From Escherichia coli (GTDB taxonomy: Bacteria > Pseudomonadota > Gammaproteobacteria > Enterobacterales > Enterobacteriaceae), in NCBI RefSeq assembly GCF_003334385.1, contig NZ_QOWN01000001.1: a stretch of DNA of 64,000 nt. One strand, written 5' to 3'. Shown here piece after piece: positions 4,893 through 57,923 of this stretch (its first letter is position 1; the number at the start of each line of letters is the position of its first letter). A model generated the notes under the pieces. That model saw nothing but the letters and a program-made list of their open reading frames with translations. It ran no database searches and was not told the DNA's origin. Both the position numbers and the translations under genes were made by a program.

Positions 4893-4914
4893 GCGGCGGT
4901 AGAAGTGCCGCCGC
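4893..4914. terminator. GC hairpin (gcggcgg / ccgccgc) downstream of gltS, between convergent gltS and recG
   Basis: Inverted repeat seen in sequence; no T-run, so weak as an intrinsic terminator. Confidence 0.3.
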
Positions 4915-10292: not shown

Positions 10293-13470
<3,178 letters not shown>

Positions 13471-14805: not shown

Positions 14806-15669
14806 TTATTCGATGTTCTGAATCTGCTCGCGCATCTGCTCAATCAACACTTTCAGCTCGATGGCGGAGTTTGTCACTTCGGCATTGATAGACTTCGACG
14901 CAAGAGTGTTCGACTCGCGGTTGAACTCCTGCATCATAAAATCCAGACGACGACCAACCGCTTCTTTTTTCTTCAGAATGTTGTAGGTCTCTTTGACATG
15001 CGCTTCGAGGCGATCCAGTTCTTCGGCAACGTCAATTCGTTGTGCCAGCAGAACCAGTTCCTGCTCCAGACGGTTGTTTTCCAGTTGCACCTGAGCATCT
15101 TCCAGCTTCGCGACCAGACGCTCACGCTGCCATTGCAGGATTTCCGGCATATGGGAGCGGACTTTGACCACTTCGGCGGTGACGCCTTCCAGACGCTGCT
15201 CGATCAATGCTTTCAGTGCCTGACCTTCGGTTTCGCGCGCGACAATAAAGTCGTCCAGCGTACCATCCAGCGCCGCGAGAATTTCAGCGGCAATGGCGTC
15301 AAGATCCTGCTCCTGGGCTGCCATCACGCCCGGCCAGCGTAGAATATCAACCGGGTTGATTTCCCCTTCGTCACTCTGCATTTTTACCCAGTTCGCGGCA
15401 GTTACCAGCTGTTTAGCCAGTTTTTCGTTGAGGATCAGCTCACCTTGCGCGCTAACATCTGGCTCATAGCGCAGGGTACATTCCACTTTACCGCGCGTCA
15501 GGCGAGAACGAATACGCTCGCGAACGACAGGTTCAAGGCTACGGAACTGCTCCGGCAGACGAAAGTAAGTTTCCAGATAACGCTGGTTTACCGAGCGCAT
15601 TTCCCAGGTTGCGCTCCCCCATTCACCCTTGATTTCACGCCGGGCGTAGGCGGTCATACTGCGGATCAT
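14806..15669 (-). CDS. yicC: YicC-family stress-induced protein
   Basis: 287 aa, MIRSMTAYARREIKGEWGSATWEMRSVNQRYLE. Confidence 0.88.
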   Translation of the reverse strand: MIRSMTAYARREIKGEWGSATWEMRSVNQRYLETYFRLPEQFRSLEPVVRERIRSRLTRGKVECTLRYEPDVSAQGELILNEKLAKQLVTAANWVKMQSDEGEINPVDILRWPGVMAAQEQDLDAIAAEILAALDGTLDDFIVARETEGQALKALIEQRLEGVTAEVVKVRSHMPEILQWQRERLVAKLEDAQVQLENNRLEQELVLLAQRIDVAEELDRLEAHVKETYNILKKKEAVGRRLDFMMQEFNRESNTLASKSINAEVTNSAIELKVLIEQMREQIQNIE

Positions 15670-18417: not shown

Positions 18418-19615
18418 AACGGGTCACGATCTCGTCGAGTAATAATTGGCCAAGGAGCTCTTTGCGCTCAAGCGGTAAGACTTTATCTCCGTCCTGCCAG
18501 AAAAGGTGTAATGCGTTGTTGTCGCTGTTAAATCCTTGAGTTGGCTGGGAAACATCGTTCGCGCAGATCAGATCAAGGTTTTTACGGATACGTTTTTGCC
18601 GGGCGTATTCTTCCACATTATTTGTTTCGGCGGCAAATCCAACGACGTAGGGTCGATGGTCTTTTAGTGCGGCAACGCCTGCGACGATATCGGGGTTTTT
18701 AACCATTTTTATTGTTAATTCATCACCCTGCGTGGCCTGCTTTTTGATTTTCTCTGGGGCCACGGTAGCTGCGCGATAATCCGCCACGGCGGCGCAGCCG
18801 ATAAAAATATTTTGCTGCTGTACAGAAGCATTCACGGCGGCTTCCATTTCCAGCGCGGTCATCACATCAACACGTTTAACAAACGGTGGCGTCGGTAGTG
18901 AAACCGGACCTGATACCAGCGTGACGTTCGCGCCACGACGGGCAGCGGCGGCGGCGATAGCAAAACCCATCTTGCCGGAGCTGTGATTAGAGATATAACG
19001 CACCGGATCGAGCGGTTCACGCGTCGGGCCGGCGGTAATCATAATGTTCAGATGTTTCAGGTCGTTGACGGGCGAAAAATGCGCTACCGCCATATCCACA
19101 ATGGTTAACGGATCGAGCATTCGCCCAGGACCGATATCACCACAAGCCTGACTGCCACTGTCTGGCCCCCAGATGAGCAAACCACGGGAAGCAAGCACCT
19201 CTAAATTATGCTGCGTGGCAGCGGCACGGTACATCTGCTGGTTCATGGCGGGGAGCACGGCTACAGGCGCAGGTGTAGCCAGACAAATCGTCGATACCAG
19301 GTCATTCGCCATTCCGGCAGCAACACGGGCAATCAAATCTGCCGTGGCAGGGGCGAGAATCACTAAATCAGCCCATTTACCCAGCTCAATATGGCCCATA
19401 GCGGCTTCGGCTGCCGGGTCCAGCAGACTGTCGGAAACGGGATAACCAGAAACCGCCTGCAAGCTAAGTGGGGTGATAAAGGCTTTTGCCGCTTCGGTCA
19501 TGGCTACGCGGACGTCGGCCCCGCGATCGCGCAAACGACGCACCAGTTCAGGGGTTTTATAGGCAGCAATACCGCCGCTAACGCCGAGAACGATTTTTTT
19601 ACCGGCCAGGCTCAT
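18395..19615 (-). CDS. coaBC: Phosphopantothenoylcysteine decarboxylase / synthetase
   Basis: ORF track 18395..19687; start at [24 protein letters not shown] (406 aa); 3' end overlaps dut start by 23 nt. Confidence 0.92.
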
Positions 19616-22041: not shown

Positions 22042-23806
<1,765 letters not shown>

Positions 23807-24125
23807 AGTAAATAGCTGACTTATGGATGTGCTGGGGATTCTATGTATTTAGCTGTGGCTTTACCATTACTTTTCCCGTTTTTGACTTAAATAGCTTCAG
23901 TTTGGTCTGATCTGCCGCTACATCTTCATTTTTTTTGTATTTTTATGCGATTCATTGAAACTCGGCCCCATTTTCAAATCTACATAGGCCGTACTGACAT
24001 TATCGAAATGCTATTTTTTATCTATTTGATTTTTATGATTAAAGTATATTTTGTGTATAAAAATCATTCGGGTCGGATTGCTGCGAAAGAAATGATACAC
24101 TAGCACGTCAAAGTAAGTGCGTTAT

Positions 24126-24164
24126 CAGTATTCAGGTAGCTGTTGAGCCTGGGGCGGTAGCGTG
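24126..24164 (+). promoter_or_regulatory. JUMPStart element with ops site GGCGGTAG (24153-24160) in the waaQ operon leader
   Basis: cagtattcaggtagctgttgagcctggggcggtagcgtg read from sequence about 50-85 bp upstream of waaQ; ops is the known RfaH recruitment site. Confidence 0.8.
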
Positions 24165-24247
24165 CTTTTTTCTGCTTAACTTAACCAGACAATCACACAA
24201 AAGAGTCGCTAGTGGAAAAGCCATTTCGAAAAATCCTGGTCATAAAG

Positions 24248-25282
24248 ATGCGATATCATGGGGATATGTTATTAACTACTCCTGTCATCAGTACGCTCAA
24301 GCAGAATTATCCTGATGCAAAAATCGATATGCTGCTTTATCAGGACACCATCCCTATTTTGTCTGAAAACCCGGAAATTAATGCGCTCTATGGGATAAGC
24401 AATAAAGGTGCGGGAACTTTCGATAAAATTAAAAATGTGCTTTCGTTGATAAAAACTCTGCGTGCGAATAATTATGACCTGGTCATTAATCTTACGGATC
24501 AGTGGATGGTGGCGCTGCTGGTACGTTGTTTACCTGCACGGATGAAAATATCGCAACTTTATGGTCATCGGCAGCATGGTATTTGGAAAAAAAGCTTCAC
24601 ACACTTAGCGCCAATACACGGTACACATATTGTTGAGCGTAATTTATCGGTCCTTGAGCCATTAGGTATTACCGATTTCTACACCGACACAACAATGAGT
24701 TACGCCGAAGATTGCTGGAAGAAGATGCGCCGGGAATTAGATGCCCTGGGCGTAAAAGATCATTATGTTGTCATCCAACCGACAGCGCGTCAGATATTTA
24801 AGTGTTGGGATAACGATAAATTTTCTAAGGTTATCGATGCGCTGCAACAGCGAGGCTATCAGGTTGTGCTAACCTGTGGGCCCTCGGCAGATGATCTCGC
24901 TTGTGTAGATGAGATTGCACGAGGTTGCGAAACAAAACCCATTACTGGCCTTGCAGGTAAAACACGTTTTCCTGAACTGGGTGCATTAATTGATCATGCA
25001 GTGCTTTTTATTGGTGTGGATTCTGCGCCGGGACATATTGCAGCGGCAGTGAAAACGCCAGTCATTAGTCTATTTGGTGCAACGGATCACGTATTCTGGC
25101 GTCCCTGGACCGAGAATATTATTCAATTCTGGGCGGGGAATTATCAGAAAATGCCGACCCGGCATGAACTTGACCGCAACAAAAAATATCTTTCTGTTAT
25201 CCCAGCGGAGGATGTGATCGCCGCTACGGAAAAGCTGTTGCCAGAAGATGCCCCTTCAGCTGACAGGAATGCACAATTATGA
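24248..25282 (+). CDS. waaQ: LPS core heptosyltransferase III
   Basis: ORF track 24212..25282 (GTG start, 356 aa); ATG at 24248 gives 344 aa; start choice is uncertain because the longer form includes a conserved KILVIK N-terminus. Confidence 0.88.
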   Translation: MRYHGDMLLTTPVISTLKQNYPDAKIDMLLYQDTIPILSENPEINALYGISNKGAGTFDKIKNVLSLIKTLRANNYDLVINLTDQWMVALLVRCLPARMKISQLYGHRQHGIWKKSFTHLAPIHGTHIVERNLSVLEPLGITDFYTDTTMSYAEDCWKKMRRELDALGVKDHYVVIQPTARQIFKCWDNDKFSKVIDALQQRGYQVVLTCGPSADDLACVDEIARGCETKPITGLAGKTRFPELGALIDHAVLFIGVDSAPGHIAAAVKTPVISLFGATDHVFWRPWTENIIQFWAGNYQKMPTRHELDRNKKYLSVIPAEDVIAATEKLLPEDAPSADRNAQL

Positions 25283-26403
25283 TCGTGGCGTTTTGTTTAT
25301 ATAAATATTTTCCATTTGGTGGGCTTCAACGTGACTTTATGCGCATTGCATCAACAGTTGCCGCACGGGGCCACCATGTTCGGGTATATACACAGTCGTG
25401 GGAAGGCGATTGCCCGAAAGCATTTGAGCTTATTCAGGTGCCAGTTAAGTCCCATACCAACCATGGACGCAATGCAGAATATTATGCCTGGGTACAAAAT
25501 CATCTCAAAGAGCATCCCGCAGATCGCGTTGTTGGGTTTAATAAGATGCCTGGCCTGGATGTTTATTTTGCCGCTGATGTTTGTTACGCCGAGAAAGTTG
25601 CGCAAGAAAAAGGTTTTTTATATCGTTTAACATCACGATATCGCCATTATGCCGCATTTGAGCGAGCGACTTTCGAGCAGGGTAAATCGACGAAACTTAT
25701 GATGCTGACCGATAAGCAAATCGCCGATTTCCAGAAGCATTATCAAACTGAACCTGAACGTTTTCAAATTCTTCCTCCCGGTATTTATCCGGACAGAAAA
25801 TACAGTGAGCAAATCCCAAACAGCCGTGAAATTTATCGCCAGAAAAATGGCATAAAAGAGCAACAAAACTTATTACTGCAGGTTGGATCAGATTTTGGCC
25901 GTAAAGGTGTAGATCGCTCAATTGAAGCTTTGGCATCGTTACCGGAATCATTACGTCACAATACGCTTTTATTTGTTGTTGGTCAGGATAAGCCGCGAAA
26001 ATTTGAAGCGCTGGCAGAAAAACTCGGCGTGCGGAGCAATGTGCATTTCTTCTCCGGTCGCAATGATGTGTCAGAATTAATGGCAGCCGCTGATTTATTA
26101 CTGCATCCCGCTTATCAGGAAGCCGCGGGTATCGTTCTTCTAGAAGCGATCACTGCTGGGTTACCTGTTTTAACAACAGCGGTATGTGGGTACGCGCATT
26201 ATATTGCGGATGCCAATTGTGGAACGGTCATCGCTGAACCTTTCTCTCAGGAACAATTAAATGAAGTTTTACGTAAAGCGCTAACTCAGTCGCCATTGCG
26301 AATGGCCTGGGCGGAGAATGCTCGCCATTATGCCGATACTCAGGATTTGTATAGCTTGCCAGAAAAAGCCGCGGATATCATTACAGGTGGTTTAGATGGT
26401 TGA
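25279..26403 (+). CDS. waaG: LPS core glucosyltransferase I
   Basis: 374 aa GT4-family protein; 4-nt overlap with waaQ. Confidence 0.92.
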
Positions 26404-27193
26404 ATTAAAAGAGCCGCTTGCCACACTTTGGCGTGGTAAAGATGCTTTTGCAGAGGTCAAAAAACTGAACGGCGAGGTCTTTCGTGAACTGGAGACTCGT
26501 CGTACATTACGCTTTGAACTGTCCGGGAAAAGCTATTTTCTTAAATGGCACAAGGGGACGACATTAAAAGAGATTATAAAAAATCTACTCTCATTGCGGA
26601 TGCCCGTTTTGGGCGCAGACAGAGAGTGGCACGCTATTCATCGCCTGAGTGATGTTGGCGTTGATACAATGAAGGGCATTGGGTTTGGCGAAAAAGGGTT
26701 AAATCCATTAACTCGCGCATCATTTATTATTACCGAAGATCTCACTCCCACAATTAGCCTTGAAGATTATTGTGCCGATTGGGCAGTCAACCCGCCTGAT
26801 ATACGTGTTAAGCGTATGCTGATCGCACGTGTAGCAACTATGGTGCGTAAAATGCATACTGCAGGGATAAATCACCGCGACTGTTACATTTGCCACTTTT
26901 TGCTTCATTTGCCATTTACTGGCCGGGAAGATGAATTAAAAATTTCAGTTATCGATCTGCATCGGGCACAGATACGTGTAAAATTACCGCGCCGCTGGCG
27001 CGATAAAGACCTGATTGGTTTATATTTCTCATCAATGAATATTGGCCTGACGCAAAGAGATATCTGGCGATTTATGAAGGTTTATTTTGGGATGCCTTTA
27101 CGCAAAATATTGTCTCTTGAACAGAATTTATTGAACATGGCAAGCGTTAAGGCCGAGCGTATTAAAGAGCGAACACAACGCAAAGGATTATAA
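26396..27193 (+). CDS. waaP: LPS core heptose(I) kinase
   Basis: 265 aa; kinase-like motif [11 protein letters not shown]. Confidence 0.92.
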
Positions 27194-27229
27194 AAATATT
27201 TATTAGTATGTACTGGAACTAACTTTATT

Positions 27230-28165
27230 ATGACTATTTATTTTATAAATTGGGTTGCAGATTATGAATTAAAAATGATTCAGTACCTGAAAAAAAAGTA
27301 CAAGATAAAAAATATAACAACACCAAAAAAATATAACTGGATTAATAAAAAAATATCAAAAATAGGGATGGATAATGCATGGCTGGGGCGATTATTCATC
27401 AAGCATTACCTCAATGATATTAAAAAAGATGACATAATTATCATTAATGACAGTGTTGTTAATAAAGGTATCAATAAACAAATATTAAAAAATATTAACT
27501 GTCATAAAGTTTTGCTTCTAAGAAATACTGTTGGCGAAGATTTTATTCTTGATAACGCGAATTATTTCGATATTATATATGATTTTGAGCATAGATTTAT
27601 AGGGAATGAAAAGATCAAGGCAATAGAACAATTTTTTCCTATAGGAATGGATGAAATTAGAAATTATAGTTTATCTGACAAAAATAACAGCCAGCCAATA
27701 TGTTTTTTCCTTGGTCGTGATAAAGGGCGTCTTCAAATAATTAATGAGTTAGCCGAGAGATTAACAACACTAGGATGTAAGCTAGATTTTAATGTTGTCA
27801 AAGATAAGACATCATCTACGACTTCAAAGTATTTGATTGAAAAACAAATATCTTATGAAGAGAATATTAGAAGAACATTAAATGCTAATATAATTGTTGA
27901 TATAACCAAAGAAAACCAATCTGGCTGGACTCTTCGTATACTTGAGGCACTATTTTTCAATAAAAAATTAATTACTAATAATATAAATGTATTTGGTTCA
28001 GAAATCTATAGTGAATCTCGCTTTTTTATAATAGGTCATGATGATTGGGATAAGTTAGAGTATTTTATTAACTCATCTGTTAAACCAATGGATTATGATA
28101 GTTTATATAAATTCAGTCCAGATAAAATGATGTCAACGATTGTTTCTGATTTTATAGACAAATAA
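27230..28165 (+). CDS. waaS: LPS core biosynthesis protein WaaS
   Basis: 311 aa; strongly AT-rich coding sequence; position after waaP as in the K-12 core type. Confidence 0.85.
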
Positions 28166-28208
28166 AACCGTTAAAACAGTGAGTTTTACTCAATTAATGA
28201 GAGTTTCT

Positions 28209-29288
28209 ATGAAAATAGCGTTTATCGGCGAAGCTGTTTCTGGATTTGGCGGCATGGAAACTGTCATCCGTGATGTTATTACTACCTTCAGGCAACAACA
28301 TATCCAAAGTGAAATGTTTTTCTTTTGTCGTAATGACAAAATGGATAAGGGATGGCTGGAAGGTATTAAATACTCATGTTCATTTTCCAATATTCGTTTA
28401 GGTTTTTTGCGTCGGGCGAAACATATTCATGCTCTAAGTAAATGGCTTCAGGAGTACCAACCAGATATCGTTATTTGTATTGATGTGATCTCCTGCCTGT
28501 TTGCCGCAAAAGCACGTAAAAAATCAGGAATTGATATGCCAGTATTTTCATGGCCACATTTTTCTTTAGATCACAAAAAACATGCTGAATATATCACCTG
28601 TGCCGACTATCATTTAGCAATCAGCTCTGGCATTAAACAGCAAATGATTAATCGAGGTGTAGCAGAATCGACGATAAATGTTATTTTTAATCCCGTCGAA
28701 ACTAAAGACTCAGTCATTCCCGCGCCCGAGGAAGGTGAAACGGCAACGTTTATTTATGTTGGGCGTATGAAATTTGAAGGCCAGAAAAGAGTTAAAGACC
28801 TGCTTGATGGCTTATCACAAGCGAAAGGTAACTGGAAACTCCATGTATTGGGTGATGGCTCCGATTTCGAAAAATGCCAGGCTTATGGTAGAGAATTAAA
28901 TATTGATGATCGAATTGTCTGGTATGGTTGGCAACAATATCCCTGGGAATTGGTCCAGCAAGATATTGAAAAAGTGAGTGCGTTATTGCTCACGTCATCT
29001 TTTGAAGGTTTCCCAATGACCCTACTTGAAGCCTTGTCGTGGGGGATTCCTTGTATCAGTGCCGATTGTGTCTCCGGGCCTGCTGACATTATTCAACCTG
29101 ATGTCAATGGCCATCTGTATCAACCGGGAGATATTGCTGGTTTTGTAACTCTTCTAAATAAATATATAGCAGGTGAAATTCATATCGAACATGAAAAAAT
29201 TCCTGCGTCGATCGATGAATTTTACCAATCGAAGTATTACGATAGATTACATAAGGTAATTATTTCTGCTATTTCCCGGAGGAAATAA
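28209..29288 (+). CDS. waaB: LPS core 1,6-galactosyltransferase
   Basis: ORF track 28179..29288; start trimmed to MKIAFIGEAVSGFGGMETV (359 aa), GT4 family. Confidence 0.88.
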   Translation: MKIAFIGEAVSGFGGMETVIRDVITTFRQQHIQSEMFFFCRNDKMDKGWLEGIKYSCSFSNIRLGFLRRAKHIHALSKWLQEYQPDIVICIDVISCLFAAKARKKSGIDMPVFSWPHFSLDHKKHAEYITCADYHLAISSGIKQQMINRGVAESTINVIFNPVETKDSVIPAPEEGETATFIYVGRMKFEGQKRVKDLLDGLSQAKGNWKLHVLGDGSDFEKCQAYGRELNIDDRIVWYGWQQYPWELVQQDIEKVSALLLTSSFEGFPMTLLEALSWGIPCISADCVSGPADIIQPDVNGHLYQPGDIAGFVTLLNKYIAGEIHIEHEKIPASIDEFYQSKYYDRLHKVIISAISRRK

Positions 29289-30307
29289 TGCAGCAGGTGT
29301 TTTTCCAGGAAACTGAGTTTCTTAATTCAGTTATTGATTATGATCATAAAGTAGAAACAGAAAATCTTTGTCTGGACATCGCTTATGGAACTGACAAAAA
29401 CTTTCTATTTGGTTGCGGAATTTCGATTGCTTCAATATTAAAATATAATGAAGGAAGTCGATTGTGTTTCCATATTTTTACTGATTATTTTGGTGATGAT
29501 GATCGTAAGTATTTTGATGCCCTGGCGTTGCAGTATAAAACCAGAATTAAAATATATCTGATTAATGGTGATCGACTGCGCTCATTGCCTAGCACTAAGA
29601 ATTGGACTCATGCAATATATTTTCGTTTTGTTATTGCAGATTACTTTATTAATAAGGCGCCTAAAGTCCTTTATCTGGATGCAGATATCATTTGTCAGGG
29701 GACTATTGAGCCACTAATTAATTTCTCATTTCCTGACGATAAAGTCGCAATGGTTGTTACAGAAGGGCAAGCTGACTGGTGGGAAAAACGCGCCCATTCG
29801 TTAGGTGTTGCGGGAATTGCTAAAGGTTACTTTAACTCCGGTTTTTTATTGATTAATACTGCCCAATGGGCGGCTCAGCAGGTTTCTGCACGAGCTATTG
29901 CAATGCTAAATGAGCCAGAAATAATCAAAAAAATAACACATCCTGATCAGGATGTGTTAAATATGTTGCTGGCGGATAAACTTATTTTCGCTGATATTAA
30001 ATATAACACCCAGTTCAGCTTAAATTATCAACTCAAAGAAAGCTTTATAAACCCAGTAACCAACGATACTATTTTTATCCATTATATCGGGCCAACCAAG
30101 CCCTGGCATGATTGGGCCTGGGATTATCCTGTATCACAAGCCTTTATGGAGGCAAAAAATGCTTCGCCATGGAAGAATACGGCGTTGCTGAAACCGAACA
30201 ATAGCAATCAATTAAGATATAGCGCAAAACATATGCTTAAAAAGCATAGATATCTAAAAGGATTTAGCAACTATCTTTTTTATTTTATTGAAAAGATAAA
30301 GCATTAA
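29288..30307 (+). CDS. waaO: LPS core 1,3-glucosyltransferase (GT8)
   Basis: 339 aa; GT8 motifs; paralogous to the next gene. Confidence 0.88.
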   Translation: MQQVFFQETEFLNSVIDYDHKVETENLCLDIAYGTDKNFLFGCGISIASILKYNEGSRLCFHIFTDYFGDDDRKYFDALALQYKTRIKIYLINGDRLRSLPSTKNWTHAIYFRFVIADYFINKAPKVLYLDADIICQGTIEPLINFSFPDDKVAMVVTEGQADWWEKRAHSLGVAGIAKGYFNSGFLLINTAQWAAQQVSARAIAMLNEPEIIKKITHPDQDVLNMLLADKLIFADIKYNTQFSLNYQLKESFINPVTNDTIFIHYIGPTKPWHDWAWDYPVSQAFMEAKNASPWKNTALLKPNNSNQLRYSAKHMLKKHRYLKGFSNYLFYFIEKIKH

Positions 30308-30346
30308 AACTGGGAAACTATAAAGTAATGATATAAGGGTAGCATT

Positions 30347-31363
30347 GTGGACTCATTTCCTGCCATAGAGATAGATAAAGTTAAAGCCTGGGATTTTCGG
30401 CTAGCTAATATAAATACTTCTGAATGTTTAAATGTTGCCTATGGTGTCGATGCTAATTATCTTGATGGTGTAGGTGTTTCCATCACATCAATTGTCCTAA
30501 ATAATCGACATATTAATCTTGATTTTTATATTATTGCTGATGTTTATAATGATGGTTTTTTTCAAAAAATTGCAAAGCTTGCAGAGCAAAACCAATTAAG
30601 AATCACGTTATATAGAATTAACACTGATAAGCTCCAGTGCTTGCCTTGTACACAGGTCTGGTCAAGAGCAATGTACTTCCGTTTATTTGCATTTCAATTA
30701 TTGGGTTTAACGCTTGATCGTTTGCTTTATCTTGATGCAGATGTTGTTTGTAAAGGCGATATTAGCCAACTATTACATCTGGGTTTAAATGGAGCGGTTG
30801 CTGCTGTTGTTAAAGATGTTGAGCCAATGCAAGAAAAGGCGGTATCCAGGTTGTCTGATCCTGAATTACTTGGGCAGTACTTTAATTCCGGTGTCGTTTA
30901 TTTAGACTTAAAAAAATGGGCTGACGCAAAACTAACAGAAAAAGCGTTGTCTATTCTTATGAGTAAAGATAATGTTTATAAATACCCTGATCAGGATGTT
31001 ATGAATGTCTTACTGAAAGGGATGACATTATTTTTGCCTCGTGAGTACAATACAATTTATACAATTAAAAGTGAATTAAAAGACAAAACACATCAAAACT
31101 ATAAAAAGCTGATTACAGAAAGTACTCTTCTTATTCATTATACAGGTGCAACTAAACCGTGGCACAAATGGGCAATTTATCCATCGGTAAAATACTATAA
31201 AATAGCTTTAGAAAATTCCCCCTGGAAAGATGACTCTCCACGAGATGCGAAATCAATTATTGAATTTAAAAAAAGATATAAACATCTTTTAGTGCAACAT
31301 CATTATATCTCAGGAATTATAGCAGGAGTCTGTTATCTTTGCCGAAAATATTACCGTAAATAA
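30347..31363 (+). CDS. waaJ: LPS core 1,2-glucosyltransferase (GT8)
   Basis: 338 aa; GT8 motifs (NVAYGVDANYL, DQDVMN). Confidence 0.88.
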   Translation: MDSFPAIEIDKVKAWDFRLANINTSECLNVAYGVDANYLDGVGVSITSIVLNNRHINLDFYIIADVYNDGFFQKIAKLAEQNQLRITLYRINTDKLQCLPCTQVWSRAMYFRLFAFQLLGLTLDRLLYLDADVVCKGDISQLLHLGLNGAVAAVVKDVEPMQEKAVSRLSDPELLGQYFNSGVVYLDLKKWADAKLTEKALSILMSKDNVYKYPDQDVMNVLLKGMTLFLPREYNTIYTIKSELKDKTHQNYKKLITESTLLIHYTGATKPWHKWAIYPSVKYYKIALENSPWKDDSPRDAKSIIEFKKRYKHLLVQHHYISGIIAGVCYLCRKYYRK

Positions 31364-31380
31364 CATTTAACTGGTTTATT

Positions 31381-32079
31381 ATGATTCAGAAGAGCAAGAT
31401 CAAAGACTTGGTTGTTTTTACCGATGAAAACAATTCAAAGTACCTCAATGTATTAAATGACTTCTTGTCTTATAATATAAATATCATCAAGGTTTTTCGT
31501 TCTATTGATGATACAAAAGTTATGCTTATTGATACCGATTACGGTAAATTGATTCTTAAGGTTTTTTCTCCGAAAGTTAAGCGTAACGAACGTTTCTTTA
31601 AGTCTCTGTTAAAAGGTGATTATTACGAACGCCTTTTTGAGCAAACCCAAAAAGTACGAAATGAAGGGTTAAATACACTCAATGACTTTTATTTATTGGC
31701 TGAACGGAAAACCTTACGTTTTGTCCATACTTATATCATGATCATCGAGTATATTGATGGCATAGAGTTGTGTGATATGCCCGATATTGATGATGCGCTA
31801 AAAAATAAAATTCAGCAATCAATTAATGCCTTACATCAACATGGCATGGTTTCTGGCGACCCCCATCGTGGTAACTTCATTATAAAAAATGGTGAGGTTC
31901 GAATTATCGATCTCTCCGGAAAGCGTGCTTCAGCGCAGCGTAAAGCGAAAGATCGTATTGACTTAGAGCGTCATTACGGTATTAAAAATGAGATTAGAGA
32001 TCTAGGCTATTATCTTTTAGTATATCGTAAAAAAATGCGCAATTTTATGCGGCGTTTGAAAGGGAAACCAGCGCGCTAA
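31381..32079 (+). CDS. waaY: LPS core heptose(II) kinase
   Basis: 232 aa; kinase-like motif GDPHRGNFI. Confidence 0.88.
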   Translation: MIQKSKIKDLVVFTDENNSKYLNVLNDFLSYNINIIKVFRSIDDTKVMLIDTDYGKLILKVFSPKVKRNERFFKSLLKGDYYERLFEQTQKVRNEGLNTLNDFYLLAERKTLRFVHTYIMIIEYIDGIELCDMPDIDDALKNKIQQSINALHQHGMVSGDPHRGNFIIKNGEVRIIDLSGKRASAQRKAKDRIDLERHYGIKNEIRDLGYYLLVYRKKMRNFMRRLKGKPAR

Positions 32080-32149
32080 AAAAAATCCCACAATTACATG
32101 TCTTCACCAGGACAGTTTTAAGCGGAGTTATTTATTTCACAGGTTTATC

Positions 32150-33001
32150 ATGAAGAATATTAGATACATTGACAAAAAAGATGTTGAAAACCTGATTGAA
32201 AATAAAACATCTGATGATGTTATTATTTTTCTTTCGGGCCCTACATCGCAAAAAACACCTTTGTCAGTATTACGAACAAAGGATATTATTGCTGTCAATG
32301 GTTCTGCGCAATATCTGTTAAGTAATAATATCGTTCCTTTTATATATGTACTTACAGATGTCCGATTTTTACATCAGCGTCGTGATGATTTTTATAAATT
32401 TAGCCAGAGAAGTCGTTATACCATAGTAAACGTTGACGTTTATGAACACGCTTCCAAAGAAGATAAACTTTATATCCTCCAGAACTGCCTCGTATTACGG
32501 TCCTTTTACCGTCGGGAAAAAGGTGGTTTTATAAAGAAGATTAAATTTAATATTTTGAGACAGATTCACAAAGAACTGCTGATCTCTGTACCGTTGTCTA
32601 AAAAAGGTCGTCTGGTTGGATTTTGCAAGGACATTAGTCTTGGTTATTGCTCATGCCATACTATTGCCTTTGCTGCAATTCAAATCGCATATTCACTTAA
32701 GTATGCGCGGATTATTTGTTCTGGTCTTGATTTAACGGGTAGCTGTTCTCGTTTCTATGATGAGAATAAAAATCCCATGCCCTCGGAATTAAGTAGGGAT
32801 TTATTCAAAATATTGCCATTTTTTCGTTTTATGCATGATAATGTAAAAGATATTAATATTTATAATTTATCAGATGATACAGCTATTTCTTACGATGTAA
32901 TTCCATTTATTAAACTTCAAGACATCAGTGCAGAAGAATCAAAAGATATGACAAGGAAAAAAATGCAATATAGAACTTCAACCGATTCTTATGCTAATTA
33001 A
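32150..33001 (+). CDS. waaZ: LPS core biosynthesis protein WaaZ
   Basis: 283 aa; position and length as in the K-12 core cluster. Confidence 0.85.
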   Translation: MKNIRYIDKKDVENLIENKTSDDVIIFLSGPTSQKTPLSVLRTKDIIAVNGSAQYLLSNNIVPFIYVLTDVRFLHQRRDDFYKFSQRSRYTIVNVDVYEHASKEDKLYILQNCLVLRSFYRREKGGFIKKIKFNILRQIHKELLISVPLSKKGRLVGFCKDISLGYCSCHTIAFAAIQIAYSLKYARIICSGLDLTGSCSRFYDENKNPMPSELSRDLFKILPFFRFMHDNVKDINIYNLSDDTAISYDVIPFIKLQDISAEESKDMTRKKMQYRTSTDSYAN

Positions 33002-33033
33002 TCATCCTGAAACTAAAATAATATGGTATAAAA

Positions 33034-34107
33034 ATGCGCTTAGGAACTTTTCACAAAAAGAAAAGATTTTATATAAACAAAATCAAGATTAATTTCCTTT
33101 CTTTTTTATTTCGTAATAAAATAAATAATCAAATTACAGATCCAGCACAAGTTAAATCATGCCTTATTATTCATGATAATAATAAACTTGGTGATCTAAT
33201 TGTATTAAGTTCGATTTATCGTGAACTTTATAGTAAAGGGGTTAAAATAACTCTTCTCACAAATAGAAAGGGTGGGGAATTTCTCTCTAATAATAAAAAT
33301 ATATTTGAGTTCTGTATTAAAGAATCAACCGGTTTTCTTGAAATGCTTACTCTATGTAAGCATCTGCGGGATTTACAGTTCGATATTGTATTAGACCCCT
33401 TTGAAACTATGCCCTCATTTAAGCATAGCTTAATATTATCAAGTTTAAAAGATTCTTACATTCTGGGTTTTGATCATTGGTATAAGCGTTACTATTCATT
33501 TTACCATCCCCACGATGAATGTTTAAAAGAACATATGAGTACACGAGCAATAGAAATACTGAAGCATATTTATGGTGAGGGTAAATTTTCCACCAACTAC
33601 GACTTGCATTTACCAGTAGATGTTGAAGATAAAATAAAAGAATTTATTGGAGATACAAGAATAGTCATTATTAATCCATTAGGTGCAAAAAAAATATGCC
33701 GTCTTACGTTTGAGCAAATAAAAGTTATATATCAAGAAGTGAAAACACACTTTGAAAATTATCGGATTATATTTACCGGGTTACCGCAAGATTTATTGAC
33801 AATACCAATACTTGAAATCGAAACACTACCATTTGATGAGTTTATTTATACCGTTGCGTTGACCAAGTATAGTGATTTTGTCATTTCTGTTGATACAGCT
33901 CTTGTTCATATCGCTGCGGCTTATCATAAACCAACGCTTGCATTTTACCCTAATTCACGTACTCCGGAATATCCCTCGCATTTAATTTGGTCCCCGAATC
34001 ATCATAAATCTATACAAATAGTATCCCCAACATATACGGTAAAAGATATCGATACTGAAACTTTAACTAATTCAGTAAAGAGATTAAGTTGTATAGATAA
34101 GAAGTGA
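33034..34107 (+). CDS. waaU: LPS core heptosyltransferase IV
   Basis: 357 aa GT9-like protein at the end of the waaQ operon. Confidence 0.85.
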   Translation: MRLGTFHKKKRFYINKIKINFLSFLFRNKINNQITDPAQVKSCLIIHDNNKLGDLIVLSSIYRELYSKGVKITLLTNRKGGEFLSNNKNIFEFCIKESTGFLEMLTLCKHLRDLQFDIVLDPFETMPSFKHSLILSSLKDSYILGFDHWYKRYYSFYHPHDECLKEHMSTRAIEILKHIYGEGKFSTNYDLHLPVDVEDKIKEFIGDTRIVIINPLGAKKICRLTFEQIKVIYQEVKTHFENYRIIFTGLPQDLLTIPILEIETLPFDEFIYTVALTKYSDFVISVDTALVHIAAAYHKPTLAFYPNSRTPEYPSHLIWSPNHHKSIQIVSPTYTVKDIDTETLTNSVKRLSCIDKK

Positions 34108-34138
34108 GTTTTAACTCACTTCTTAAACTTGTTTATTC

Positions 34139-35398
34139 TTAATTAATTGTATTGTTACGATTATTAATGACGAGTAAGAGGACTATAGCGGATATAATGA
34201 TAATTGGAATGCTGCGTGCCCATATGATCACATCACTGAGTCCAATCCCCACAATGCCAAGCGTTAATATCAACAAACCCAAAGCTCGTTTTTTATATGC
34301 TATATAAAATAGTGAAAAATAGAGGAAAAGTGTGGAAAAAATTCCCATCAGACCTTTCAGTGACCCTGCTTCAATTATCTCATTATGTAGATGTACGTTA
34401 GAAAACTCCAATGCCCCTCTTAGCCTATTGTGTTCTGCAACTAACAAATTCATACTTTCAGCGCGTGACTCTGCTGATCTAAATGAAAAAGGTGACTTTA
34501 TGAATATATTTAAACCAATTTCGTACATTGCCAGTCTTGCACCTAGGGAAGTAACACTATTAGCATTGGTATAACTGTTTAAGTCATTTAATGCTTCATT
34601 ATAGCGATTCTGTATTGGTTTATTAAATATAATAACAATGCTAGCTAATATAGCAATTAGTAGAACAATAGAGGAAGTGAATTTCTTGGGTGATTTATTA
34701 TAATAAGCTATTAATGCAGCAACACAAATTATAGGGAACAGGAGTAGGGTTGCTCTGGTTTGTGTTAGCGCCAGAACATAAAGTACCGCGCAACTATTTA
34801 ATAAAAATAAAAAAGGATGATTTTTCTTAGTATAAAGAATCGCAACGCCACTAACTATCCCTATTAGCATTGTTGAATATGCTGCTCCTGTTGCCGTTCC
34901 TACACCAAAAGAAATGCGGTCATTTTCATGAATGCTATTAATATACATTGCATATCCAGCAATTAGAAATGACAGAGAATACAAAGTGTATAATACACTC
35001 TCTTTTTTTGATTTTAGCTGGCTAGTTAGTGTCAAGAAAACAATAAAAGAACCAAATATAAATATTTTGGCAGTATTTAAATAACTATGGTAAGTAGCAC
35101 GAAATGGCGAATTATCTACTTTAAACGCAGAATACCAAATTAAATCAAGCAAGCCTATTAAAAATATAGAAAGGGGAAGAATAAGGTTTTTTATATTATA
35201 ATTTTCTTGTCTGCCACGTAAAATTAGTGACAATAAGCAAACTATAGCAGTGATATTATATATTTTTATGCTGAAAGTATTATCGACGAATGCAATTATC
35301 ATTGAAAAAAAACATAATATATAAGTTATTATCTCTAAAATCATTGATGATTTCAGAGTGTAAGGTTTCAATGAATGAAGTTTAAAGGATGTTAGCAT
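34139..35398 (-). CDS. waaL: O-antigen ligase
   Basis: 419 aa polytopic membrane protein; last gene of the hldD-waaF-waaC-waaL operon. Confidence 0.88.
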   Translation of the reverse strand: MLTSFKLHSLKPYTLKSSMILEIITYILCFFSMIIAFVDNTFSIKIYNITAIVCLLSLILRGRQENYNIKNLILPLSIFLIGLLDLIWYSAFKVDNSPFRATYHSYLNTAKIFIFGSFIVFLTLTSQLKSKKESVLYTLYSLSFLIAGYAMYINSIHENDRISFGVGTATGAAYSTMLIGIVSGVAILYTKKNHPFLFLLNSCAVLYVLALTQTRATLLLFPIICVAALIAYYNKSPKKFTSSIVLLIAILASIVIIFNKPIQNRYNEALNDLNSYTNANSVTSLGARLAMYEIGLNIFIKSPFSFRSAESRAESMNLLVAEHNRLRGALEFSNVHLHNEIIEAGSLKGLMGIFSTLFLYFSLFYIAYKKRALGLLILTLGIVGIGLSDVIIWARSIPIIIISAIVLLLVINNRNNTIN

Positions 35399-37426: not shown

Positions 37427-38359
37427 TTATGCGTCGCGATTCAGCCAGGCCATGTATTCCGTTACACCTTCAGCAACGGTTTTGAACGGTTTGTCGTAAC
37501 CCGCCGCGCGCAGATTTGTCAGATCTGCCTGAGTGAACGCCTGATAGCGGCCTTTCAGTTTATCCGGGAACGGAATGTATTCGATCTGGCCTTTCTTGTG
37601 ATAAGCCAGCGTAGCATCAGCTACCGCCTGGAAGGATTCCGCACGACCAGTACCGAGATTGAAGATGCCGGAAACGCCATTTTCCAGGAACCACAGATTC
37701 ACATCAGCCACGTCGCCCACATAGACGAAGTCGCGTTTGAAGTTCTCGCTACCTTCAAACAGCTTCGGTGATTCACCGTTGTTAAGCTGGGTGTTGAGAT
37801 GGAAAGCGACGCTCGCCATGCTGCCTTTATGGCCTTCACGCGGTCCATAAACGTTGAAATAACGGAAGCCAACAATCTGCGAGTTCGCTTCAGGCAGGAT
37901 TTGACGAACATATTCATCAAACAGGAATTTTGAGTAACCGTAGACGTTCAACGGTTTTTCGTACTCGCGGGATTCAATAAAGTCGGAGGTGCGTCCGCCG
38001 TAGGTGGCTGCGGAAGAAGCGTACAGGAACGGGATTTCACGCTCCAGGCAGTAGTGCAGCAGCTCCTTGGAGTATTGATAGTTGTTATCCATCATATACT
38101 TGCCGTCCCACTCGGTGGTGGAAGAGCACGCGCCTTCGTGGAAAATCGCTTCGACATCGCCGAACTCTTCGCCAGCCATAATCTGGATCAGGAAGTCTTC
38201 CTTATCCATATAGTCTGCGATATTCAGATCCACCAGGTTCACAAACTTGGTGCCGTCTTTCAGGTTGTCCACCACCAGAATATCGGTGATGCCTTTATCA
38301 TTCAGGGCTTTAACGATGTTGCTGCCGATAAAGCCCGCGCCGCCGGTAACGATGATCAT
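37427..38359 (-). CDS. hldD: ADP-L-glycero-D-manno-heptose 6-epimerase
   Basis: 310 aa, [23 protein letters not shown] (Rossmann fold). Confidence 0.93.
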
Positions 38360-38662
38360 AACTGTAACCTTCGAATTATGGAGTCAGAGACAATCTCAGA
38401 CACGAATGTCTGTAATCATACCATCACATCCGAATCCCTTCAGCCCTTTACATAGAGGTGCAAGGATGCTAATTGCAACAAACTAGTTTGGGTTTTAGCT
38501 AGTCCTTCATGGCGGATGTTGGTTTTGCATGTGAATAGTGCTTTAGTATCAATATTCCGATGTATGATAAATAACGGAAGCATTTGAATGGATAATATAC
38601 AGTATACATTCTATTAATATTTATGATATAATTCTTTTTTTATATTAATGGTCTTATTAGTA

Positions 38663-53293: not shown

Positions 53294-54948
53294 TAAGGAA
53301 TCATCCACGTTAAGACATAAGCCTGAAGCGTGGTGATCACGCCCACTATACAGGTGAAGATCAGGCTGTGTTTGACAGTAAAGCGGAACAAATCAGACTC
53401 TTTGCCCACCAGGCCTACCGCCGCACAGGCGATAGCGATAGATTGCGGGGAGATCATCTTACCGGTGACGCCACCGGTGGTATTGGCGGCAACCAGCAAC
53501 AGATCAGAGACGCCAATTTGTTGTGCTGCGGTGGCTTGCAGCGCGGCGAACAGGGCGTTAGATGAGGTATCCGACCCGGTCAGGAATACCCCCAGCCAGC
53601 CGAGGAACGGCGAGAAGAAGGTGAATGCATGACCGGTGTGCGCCAGTGCCAGCGCCAGTGTTGATGACAGTCCGGAATAGTTCGAAATAAAGGCGAATGC
53701 CAGCACCATACCGATGGAGTAGATGGGCAGAGCCAGTTCTTTCAGCGTGCTGCCGAAGGTGCTGATAGCGTCAGACGGTTTCATCTTCAGCCAGACAATC
53801 GAGAGCAGTGCAGCAAACAGAATGGCGGTGCCGGTGGCAGAGAACCAGTCAAACTTAAACACGGCGGCATAGGCTGTAGCCTCGCTGACCACTGGCGGCA
53901 TACGGGCAACCAGTTTATCGAGGTACGGCACCGGAATATTGATCACCCACTCATACAGCGCGCCACCCGATGCGAACAGGGCTTTAAACGGCGGGATACT
54001 CCACAGTGTTACGGTAGCTGTCAGGAACAGGAACGGTGTCCAGGCACGTAACACCTGACCCGCAGTGTAACTGGTGTGGGCCAGCGTCATATCAACCTGT
54101 GACGCCCCCAAATCACCAAAACGGAATACACGCACTGGCTGCCAGCGTTTGAGGAACAGCGTCAGGCAGAGCAGTGATACCAGCGAAGAGATAATGTCCG
54201 GCAGCTCCGGCCCAATGAAGTTAGAGCTAAGGTACTGAGCGATGGCAAACGAGCCGCCCGCAACCACGACCGCAGGCCACGTCTCTTTGATACCGCGCCA
54301 GCCGTCCATAATCGCCATGATCCAGAACAGCACGATAATGGTCATAAACGGTAGCTGCCGCCCCACCATCTGACCAATCTCAAAGCTGTCGATACCTGTT
54401 ACCTGTCCGGCAACCAGGATTGGAATGCCCATCGCACCAAATGCCACTGGCGCGGTGTTAACAATCAGGCACAGCCCGGCGGCGTACAGCGGTTTAAAAC
54501 CCAGGCCGACCAGCAATGCGGCGGTAATTGCTACCGGTGCGCCAAAGCCTGCGGCTCCTTCAAGGAACGCGCCGAAACAGAAACCGACGATCAGCATTTG
54601 CAGACGCTGGTCAGGGGTTATCGAAAGAATAGACGAGCGAATGATGTCAAACTGCCCGGTTTTCACCGAGATCTTATAGACGAACACCGCTGCAATAATG
54701 ATCCACGCGATGGGCCACAACCCGTAGAAGAAACCATAAACCACCGAGGCCAGCGCGTTAGCGACCGGCATTTTATAGAACAGCAAAGCCACGGCAAGGG
54801 CGATTGCCACCGTCCACGAGGCGGCGACGTATCCTTTCAGTTTGAGCTTAATCAGCGCAAAGAAGAAAAACAGGATGGGAAGCGATGCTATCAGACTGGA
54901 AAGCCAGATATTCCCGGCGGGATCGTAGTTTTGTTGCCAGAGATTCAT
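53293..54948 (-). CDS. lldP: L-lactate permease
   Basis: ORF track 53293..54975; start at [25 protein letters not shown] (551 aa). Confidence 0.92.
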
Positions 54949-56775: not shown

Positions 56776-57923
56776 TATTGCATTGCTTTATAAGCGGTTA
56801 CCGCCTCGGATACAACCTCGCTGTTGGCATCAAGACCGGAAATCTGTGCCAGCGCCGCCTGCGGACCTTTGTCAGCGATCAGTGCTGCCAGTTCCTGAGC
56901 CTGCGGATCATCTTCACTGCGGAAGTGCATTGCAGCGGCAATACCTTCAATCAGGTTTTTATGTGGCAGACCATATTCCAGCGTACCGAGCAGTGGCTTG
57001 ATCAGACGGTCGCCAGCACTCAGTTTACGCAGTGGCTGACGGCCTACGCGCTCTACATCATCTTTCAGATACGGGTTCTCAAAACGGCCGAGAATTTTCT
57101 GGATGTACGCCGCATGCTTGTCAGCGTCAAAGCCGTAGCGCTTGATCAATACTGCACCACTTTCTTCCATCGCACCTTTTACCACCGCGCGGATTTTCTC
57201 GTCGAGAATCGCGTCACGAATGGTCTGATGACCGGCCAGTTTTCCGAGGTACGCGGTTATAGCATGACCCGTGTTCAGGGTGAAGAGTTTACGTTCGACA
57301 AATGCCATCAGGTTGTCGGTTAACTCCATGCCTGGGATGTTCGGCAGTGCGCCTTTGAACTGCGTTTTATCGACAATCCATTCGCTGAAGGTTTCTACCG
57401 TCACTTCCAGCGGATCGTTAGTTGCCGAAGCCGAAGGCGGTACGATGCGGTCAACGGCGGAATCGACAAAGCCAACGTGTTCTTCTACCCACGCTTTGGC
57501 GTCTTCCGGCAGGGCGTTCATCACATGGCCTTTCAGCTGCGTGGTACCGCGTACCATGTTTTCACAGGCGATGATGTTCAGCGGGGATTCATTACCTTGT
57601 TCTTTACGTTTCACCAGCCCTTTGGCGATTGCCGGAGCAATACGTTCCAGCACAACCGGGCCAACGGCGGTAGTGACTAAATCAACCTGAGCAATCAGAT
57701 CAACGACATCATCACCAATGCTGCTGACAGCATTGACGCCGGAAACGGTATCTACCTGCTCGGTTTCACCAACCACATGTACCTGATAGCTATGACGGGC
57801 ATTCAGGGCATCAAGTACCACCTGATTGACATCGGCAAACGTCAGTTGGATACCCGCGTCTGCCAGCAGTTTACCGATAAAGCCACGACCGATATTACCT
57901 GCGCCAAAATGTAATGCTTTCAT
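56775..57923 (-). CDS. mtlD: Mannitol-1-phosphate 5-dehydrogenase
   Basis: ORF track 56775..58241 (488 aa) over-extends through the upstream repeats; start at [24 protein letters not shown] gives 382 aa. Confidence 0.93.

Follow-up and report, generated by a model that had tools for sequence, protein, structure and literature searches.

The JUMPstart/ops element in the waaQ leader of Escherichia coli K-12 and the transcription unit that it heads

The JUMPstart element was reportedly described by Hobbs and Reeves in 1994. As represented by the Rfam family RF01707, it is a 39-nt element in the 5' untranslated region of polysaccharide gene clusters, in which a 5-bp stem-loop is followed by the ops sequence. 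The functional ops has 12 nt. Its positions 3-8 serve the recruitment of RfaH and are dispensable for pausing, pausing at U11 requires T11-G12, and the recognised structure is a hairpin of non-template DNA that is closed by a C3:G8 pair and from which T6 is flipped out (PMC5995543). Binding of RfaH leads to a hyper-paused state, and the freed KOW domain refolds to a beta-barrel that binds the ribosome (PMC11001881, PMC6370827). RfaH then remains with the polymerase along the whole operon, where it keeps NusG off and opposes termination that depends on Rho or H-NS (PMC9765446). In strain CFT073, ChIP-seq finds RfaH along the rfa operon beyond the one ops in its leader, deletion of rfaH brings RNA polymerase occupancy near background toward the end of that operon, and RfaH-dependent travelling ratios lie at 0.1-0.34; in K-12, RfaH recruitment is reported at two operons, one of which is the waaQ operon (PMC9765446). 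Loss of rfaH by deletion results in a truncated LPS core (PMC6358824).

The operons of the ops/RfaH type (rfb, hly, kps, tra) carry the non-template 12-nt GGCGGTAGCGTG in the leader, in one copy per operon, with a long, AT-rich, H-NS-bound operon downstream and an ops-to-start spacing within 40-67 nt; the waaQ operon shares all of these features and is a standard example of the system, with no difference from it. EAR/epsC RNA (PMC2864571) and the put and nut elements of lambda are likewise leader elements that make polymerase resistant to termination in long polysaccharide or phage operons, but they act as RNA, whereas a NusG paralogue recognises ops as DNA, in the single-stranded non-template strand (PMC5995543). 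In what follows, the sequence, the Rfam match, uniqueness, strand, position, conservation, covariation and the operon come from our own analysis, and pausing, RfaH binding, antitermination and ribosome recruitment are taken from the literature.

Identity of the element and the weight of its core

The window analysed here is a stretch of 64,000 nucleotides of E. coli DNA, which runs in reverse orientation relative to NC_000913.3 (window position = 3,832,346 minus the record coordinate). Read directly from the window, the 39-mer CAGTATTCAGGTAGCTGTTGAGCCTGGGGCGGTAGCGTG occupies 24126..24164 on the plus strand. When the 64-kb window was scanned against all 4227 Rfam families at their curated thresholds, JUMPstart (RF01707) was the sole family to reach threshold, scoring 55.2 bits (E = 6.4e-10; gathering score 35 bits) in an end-to-end alignment at exactly 24126..24164 (+) that covers model positions 1-38 of 38. 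The last twelve bases of the match, 24153..24164 (+), are the full 12-nt ops, which lies on the non-template strand, the same strand as waaQ, and begins with the ops core at 24153..24160 (+). The pattern GGCGGTAGNNTG has this one match on both strands of the window, against 0.04 expected, and the consensus GGCGGTAGnnTG is present at 24153..24164 in all twelve bases, among them bases 3-8, which RfaH contacts, and the pause bases T11-G12, with the pause position U11 at 24163. A preliminary description of this DNA had placed a 39-bp JUMPStart with its ops core at 24126-24164 and had named alignment to the JUMPStart consensus as the check; the Rfam match reproduces those coordinates exactly, and the alignment runs through the full model with every ops base in place.

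We are close to certain that 24126..24164 is the JUMPstart/ops element of the E. coli K-12 waaQ leader and a loading site for the NusG paralogue RfaH, which makes it an already known, well-studied and annotated regulatory element. All that the RfaH model requires of the sequence is present at 24153..24164, namely the twelve bases, the strand, a position in a leader and a long AT-rich operon, and we found no sequence feature that argues against the JUMPstart/ops identity. The element is a reliable landmark, from which the 5' boundary of the main LPS-core operon and the logic of its regulation can be read, and it shows the window to be the K-12 waa locus.

The 8-mer core carries little of this weight. 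The core GGCGGTAG occurs seven times in the window, against 1.14 copies expected from dinucleotide shuffles, but Markov models of order 3-5 trained on the window expect 2.7-4.2 copies, and 2267 other 8-mers likewise reach at least seven copies; for both reasons the core alone is weak and non-diagnostic evidence. Judged from the sequence, the evidential weight for the copy at 24153 lies in its 39-nt context and its leader position. These frequencies nonetheless raise the question of whether the copy at 24153 is itself a chance or non-functional match like the others, a reading that would agree both with the abundance of the core and with the observation by ChIP-seq that ops-like sites within coding regions recruit no RfaH, even when they lie on the non-template strand (PMC9765446). 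Against this reading stand the full 12-nt ops, which within the window occurs only at this copy, its 55-bit JUMPstart context in a leader, and the retention of the element in essentially all E. coli and in many other genera, and we regard the chance reading as so improbable as to be negligible.

The other six copies of the core all lack the pause bases T11-G12. Three of them lie on the plus strand: one forms the 5' arm of the GC-rich hairpin GGCGGTAGAAGTGCCGCC at 4895..4912, nine bases past the gltS stop codon, and two are antisense to genes, at 13258 (yicG) and at 57666 (mtlD). The remaining three lie on the minus strand, each in the sense strand within a coding region, at 19091..19084 in coaBC (GGCGGTAGCGCA), at 37628..37621 in hldD (GGCGGTAGCTGA) and at 53422..53415 in lldP (GGCGGTAGGCCT), and these keep the RfaH-contact bases 1-8 and are missing T11-G12. 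We rejected all six as ops sites on the grounds of the absent pause bases and of their intragenic, antisense or post-gltS hairpin contexts, none of which is a leader. Lying between gltS and recG, two convergent genes, the hairpin at 4895..4912 (+) probably serves as the stem of a terminator. The 8-mer core thus over-calls, with seven copies in the window for one real site, and specificity comes with the complete 12-mer when it lies in a leader, or with the JUMPstart model of 39 nt.

Conservation of the element and covariation of its stem

The intergenic region between waaA and waaQ is 100% identical to that of K-12 MG1655 and finds a match in 5425 of 5426 complete E. coli genomes. In E. coli lineages outside the K-12-like identity bands the waaQ leader is only ~86% identical to that of K-12, yet the 39-mer is identical in the leaders of O157:H7, APEC O2:K1 and O84:H7 and forms an invariant island within them. 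In E. coli C288 the 39-mer carries a single A-to-G change, which turns an A-U pair of the stem into G-U. K-12 has a second JUMPstart between galF and rfbB (60 bits; 15198..15236 of the K-12 cps-rfb sequence, L006), and its stem reads CUGG/CCAG, as does the consensus, whereas that of waaQ reads CAGG/CCUG; this is a compensatory change from A-U to U-A, and the difference from the family touches nothing essential. The same K-12 region, which lies outside the window, holds two further Rfam matches, an algC RNA motif just upstream of cpsG in the colanic acid cluster (L006:5340..5389) and a REP-derived naRNA4 between wzxC and wcaK (L006:9779..9849).

The JUMPstart stem-loop in the window spans 24133..24151 (+), where CAGGT at 24133..24137 pairs with GCCTG at 24147..24151 around a 9-nt loop, as drawn in the structure line of the Rfam alignment, and all five of its five pairs form in the K-12 waaQ leader. 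Folded as RNA, the isolated 39-mer is no more stable than shuffled sequence (z = +0.32), and the stem-loop in isolation is weak (-6.4 kcal/mol, z = -0.94); given the former value, the support for the stem comes from covariation and not from folding energy. RNAalifold on five E. coli leaders returned no two-sided changes, their divergence being too low, and the covariation appears in a wider sample. In species-representative genomes at least 120 loci match GGTAGC-N8-12-GGGGCGGTAGCGTG, nearly all of those listed being from Enterobacterales, with genera that include Citrobacter, Enterobacter, Salmonella, Pantoea, Serratia, Pectobacterium, Tatumella and Rahnella and often with two or three copies per genome. 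Among 87 unique Enterobacterales elements, the second pair of the stem is U-A in 57, A-U in 13, G-U in nine, G-C in four and mismatched in four, and the partner bases of those stem positions that the search pattern fixes, which are themselves free to vary, are paired in 86-87 of the 87. The 3' arm of the best pairing abuts GGGCGGTAGCGTG in 85 of the 87 elements, all five pairs form in 81, the loop measures 7-10 nt and the spacing from stem to ops is constant in 85. This result reproduces the conserved JUMPstart stem-loop reported by Weinberg et al., 2010 (PMC2864571).

Some of the matches call for separate comment. Four loci from Enterobacter and Mangrovibacter (L021, L028, L038 and L105) form a subclass with a 7-nt loop, TGCTTCTGGTAGC(C/G)TAAGCCAGG; in these a T-run, CCTTTTTTACACACAA, follows the element too, and their context is other than waaQ. 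The matches in a 4-kb Arthrobacter contig with 2x coverage (L039) and in a 2-kb contig of a Peptococcaceae metagenome-assembled genome (L095) are near-identical to the E. coli rfb leader and are probably contaminating E. coli DNA. A typical JUMPstart in an Erysipelotrichia metagenome-assembled genome (L062) is likewise suspect as contamination, and a match in one assigned to Polyangia (L065) looks like chance in GC-rich sequence.

U11, where the polymerase pauses, is 12 nt beyond the end of the JUMPstart stem, a spacing that resembles the geometry of the his pause hairpin in the RNA exit channel. The 5' half of JUMPstart could accordingly act as a nascent-RNA hairpin of the his type that lengthens the ops pause and widens the window for RfaH loading. 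The covariation of the second pair, the placement of the 3' arm against GGGCGGTAGCGTG while the loop length varies and the independent report of a conserved stem-loop are all what such a hairpin would lead one to expect. However, the ops pause is described as differing biochemically from pauses that a hairpin stabilises, in that it is pre-translocated or backtracked (PMC11001881, PMC5995543), ops alone suffices for pausing and for RfaH recruitment on scaffolds that have no hairpin, and the stem is weak in isolation. We consider a pause-prolonging role for the stem unlikely, and we retain the reading of the element as an RfaH loading site in which ops is recognised as DNA.

The leader transcript, RirA and a predicted ops-containing hairpin

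The small RNA RirA was reportedly described by Klein and colleagues in 2016, and its published role is said to be titration of RfaH upon overexpression; the account of its 3' end by a hairpin and a U-run that we give below is our own. RirA (b4760; 73 nt) is annotated in NC_000913.3 as the ncRNA rirA at 3808166..3808238 (-), which corresponds to 24108..24180 (+) of the window with identical sequence and coordinates, and the whole JUMPstart lies inside it. RirA and the waaQ mRNA have a common start site, and RirA contains both ops and JUMPstart (PMC8745692, PMC5736990). Counted from the annotated 5' end at 24108, JUMPstart occupies +19..+57, ops occupies +46..+57 and the U11 pause falls at +56 (24163), so that the element stands in the 5' leader that separates 24108 from the waaQ start at 24212. 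For rirA, a Tn5 insertion has been reported at U00096 3808201 (PMC11014345), which corresponds to window position 24145, within the JUMPstart loop.

Upstream of the annotated 5' end we find an extended -10-like box, TGATACACT, at 24093..24101 (+), whose hexamer TACACT (24096..24101) ends 7 nt upstream of 24108. In each of the 22 distinct K-12-like waaQ leaders a box of the form TGnTACA(C/A)T precedes ops by 50-53 nt. Given where 24093..24101 lies with respect to the 5' end annotated for rirA, we infer that it is the putative waaQ/rirA promoter. A consensus scan of 23700..24300 found no sigma-70 site and no terminator, a scan that misses both the extended -10 box and the interrupted hairpin described next and whose negative outcome is therefore uninformative.

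The leader RNA is predicted to fold into a long hairpin at 24115..24167 (+), with a 5' arm at 24115..24129, a 3' arm at 24154..24167 and the JUMPstart stem-loop at its tip. The 3' arm consists of ops positions 2-12 and the three next bases, and directly after the hairpin comes the T-run TTTTTT at 24166..24171 (+). The predicted folding energy is -21.8 kcal/mol (z = -2.86), and two of 200 shuffled sequences fold as well. We aligned 22 distinct K-12-like waaQ leaders, drawn from Escherichia, Citrobacter, Intestinirhabdus, Silvania, Pluralibacter, Kosakonia, Cedecea, Shimwellia and an isolate labelled Enterobacter sp. Ag1. Across this alignment 92.5% of helix cells are paired, against 30-56% when the partners are slid by 1-3 columns, a contrast that is inflated by the derivation of the helix from the K-12 sequence and that is drawn from related leaders. 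Opposite the invariant ops, the 5' arm changes from U-G to C-G, from G-U to A-U and from A-U to G-U, with pairing kept in each case, and the pair formed by the base after ops shows a two-sided change from G-C to A-U. A T-run, counted as at least five T in the 9 nt after ops, follows in 21 of the 22 K-12-like waaQ leaders and in 22 of 101 other JUMPstart leaders (Fisher p = 7e-11, uncorrected for relatedness), and the columns of the run are at least 90% T in the 22-leader alignment.

The ops-containing hairpin and U-run of waaQ leaders are thus terminator-like, and we infer from the modelled fold that they could be the source of RirA. Taken further, the hairpin at 24115..24167 and the U-run at 24166..24171 may constitute an attenuator, at which polymerases that have failed to take up RfaH would terminate and release the 73-nt RirA, which would then titrate RfaH, whereas polymerases that carry RfaH would read through. 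This reading would add a layer to the explanation of the element as an RfaH loading site and is not an alternative to it. It draws on the stability of the fold, on the pairing kept across about eight genera through compatible one-sided changes and one double change, and on the enrichment of the T-run; RirA is annotated to end at 24180, a few bases past that run, and the start site that RirA shares with the waaQ mRNA fits as well, as does the report that RirA inhibits RfaH (PMC8745692). RfaH also lowers termination at some factor-independent terminators (PMC2871177).

Several observations weigh against such an attenuator. An intrinsic terminator is expected to have a stable GC-rich hairpin that runs directly into a U-tract and an RNA 3' end 7-9 nt past the stem. 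A classical terminator of this geometry would be expected to release RNA at ~24172-24175, and the annotated end at 24180 is 6-8 nt beyond; the stem contains internal loops, and the consensus terminator scan did not flag it. The slid-column comparison favours a structure that was taken from K-12 in the first place, the compatible changes in related sequences may amount to one or two evolutionary events, and, with ops invariant, two-sided covariation is precluded at most pairs. An analogous helix is present in the leader of K-12 rfb, which has no U-run. The idea may, moreover, already stand in the primary RirA paper; a literature search found no papers that link rirA with Term-seq. We hold the attenuator as a tentative possibility that we lean against, though not so strongly as against the pause-prolonging stem. 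If it were true, one 60-nt stretch would serve as the DNA loading site for RfaH, as the first target of antitermination and as the source of an RfaH inhibitor, a self-balancing loop. The ops-containing hairpin with its U-run is the one mildly new angle that emerges from this work, in that it offers a testable origin for RirA, and nothing that we report alters the current understanding.

The waaQ start and the operon downstream of the element

The first gene downstream of the element is waaQ (rfaQ; heptosyltransferase III), which is 100% identical to its K-12 counterpart and is identified by the NCBIfam equivalog NF007742 (682 bits). PGAP annotates its coding sequence at 24212..25282 (+) with a GTG start, giving 356 amino acids and a gap of 47 nt after ops, whereas NC_000913.3 begins it at the alternative ATG 24248, giving 344 amino acids and a gap of 83 nt. 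The NF007742 match covers residues 1-350 of the GTG-start protein, and tblastn with K-12 WaaQ finds homology from residue 1, located 46-52 nt after ops, in Citrobacter, Pluralibacter, Silvania, Shimwellia, Cedecea and others. Since the family model and the homology in other genera both begin at residue 1, the sequence comparison favours GTG 24212, which appears better supported than ATG 24248 as the waaQ start; a start at 24248 would cut the conserved N-terminal KPFRKILVIK from WaaQ. The 47 nt that separate 24164 from this GTG agree with the preliminary description, which had set the element about 50 bp upstream of the waaQ start, and fall inside the range of 40-67 nt that has been given for the ops-to-start spacing in the wzx, kps and rfa operons (PMC9765446). 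The only Shine-Dalgarno-like sequence before the GTG is a weak AAGAG at 24201..24205. Operons controlled by RfaH have been described that are without a canonical ribosome-binding site and in which the ribosome is recruited via RfaH (PMC6358824), and the weak AAGAG and GTG start at waaQ agree with that account.

Downstream of the element lie ten co-oriented LPS-core genes, waaQGPSBOJYZU, at 24212..34107 (+). The nine that follow waaQ, each an annotated open reading frame on the plus strand, are waaG (25279..26403), waaP (26396..27193), waaS (27230..28165), waaB (28209..29288), waaO (29288..30307), waaJ (30347..31363), waaY (31381..32079), waaZ (32150..33001) and waaU (33034..34107), and RfaQ, RfaP, WaaB, WaaO, RfaY and WaaZ score above the curated cut-offs of their NCBIfam equivalogs. 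The intergenic gaps run from -8 to +70 nt, and transcription has to cover 10,000 nt from its start site to reach the waaU stop. The GC content of the operon is 36.8%, against 48.7% for the window, and falls to 29-37% between 27 and 35 kb. The waaQ operon is thus long and AT-rich, with weak translation signals at its first gene, as is characteristic of RfaH operons. The preliminary description had spoken of a waaQ-to-waaU operon, and the gene order found here fits the K-12 core type. Its further proposal, RfaH-dependent antitermination of that operon, gains support from the leader position of the element, its place on the coding strand and the LPS-core genes downstream, features that point to such control, with the dependence on RfaH itself taken from the literature.

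In the model that these features suggest, transcription would start at 24108 and, ~56 nt on, the polymerase would pause with the RNA 3' end at U11 (24163). In the paused complex the non-template GGCGGTAGCGTG would form a small hairpin, closed by C3:G8 and with T6 turned out, which autoinhibited RfaH would recognise. RfaH would then open, remain on the polymerase and exclude NusG, and it would suppress pausing as well as Rho- and H-NS-dependent termination. Its refolded KOW domain would recruit a ribosome to the weakly signalled waaQ GTG, and as a result the AT-rich, 10-kb waaQGPSBOJYZU would be expressed to its end.

The preliminary description had also offered ops as an anchor for operon boundaries. 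This holds on the 5' side, where the gene next to waaQ, waaA (22529..23806, minus strand), is divergent from it, but not on the 3' side, as it is unclear how RfaH-modified polymerase terminates (PMC9765446). A 12-bp hairpin at 34098..34125 (+), which overlaps the waaU stop between the convergent genes waaU and waaL and is terminator-like in the consensus scan, is a candidate, proposed from sequence features, for the 3' boundary of the operon. RfaH-modified complexes sometimes run past predicted transcription units (PMC9765446). Two small translated open reading frames, yibY (34197..34307) and yibX (34332..34574), lie past waaU on the plus strand, antisense to waaL (bioRxiv 10.1101/511675). Since RfaH-modified complexes can pass the predicted ends of units, the yibY and yibX transcripts could plausibly arise by read-through past 34098..34125, by analogy with those cases.

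The waaL open reading frame on the opposite strand is intact (419 aa, 34139..35398, minus strand) and is annotated in NC_000913.3; the PGAP record NZ_CP032667.1 carries only yibX and yibY there and no waaL coding sequence at 34139..35398, which looks like an annotation gap. The low-GC block extends from waaS through waaL (27000..35000; 29-37% against ~52% in the flanks), and a second dip, to ~40%, occurs at 38000..40000 in the htrL region. Both low-GC blocks are consistent with horizontally acquired, H-NS-prone DNA.
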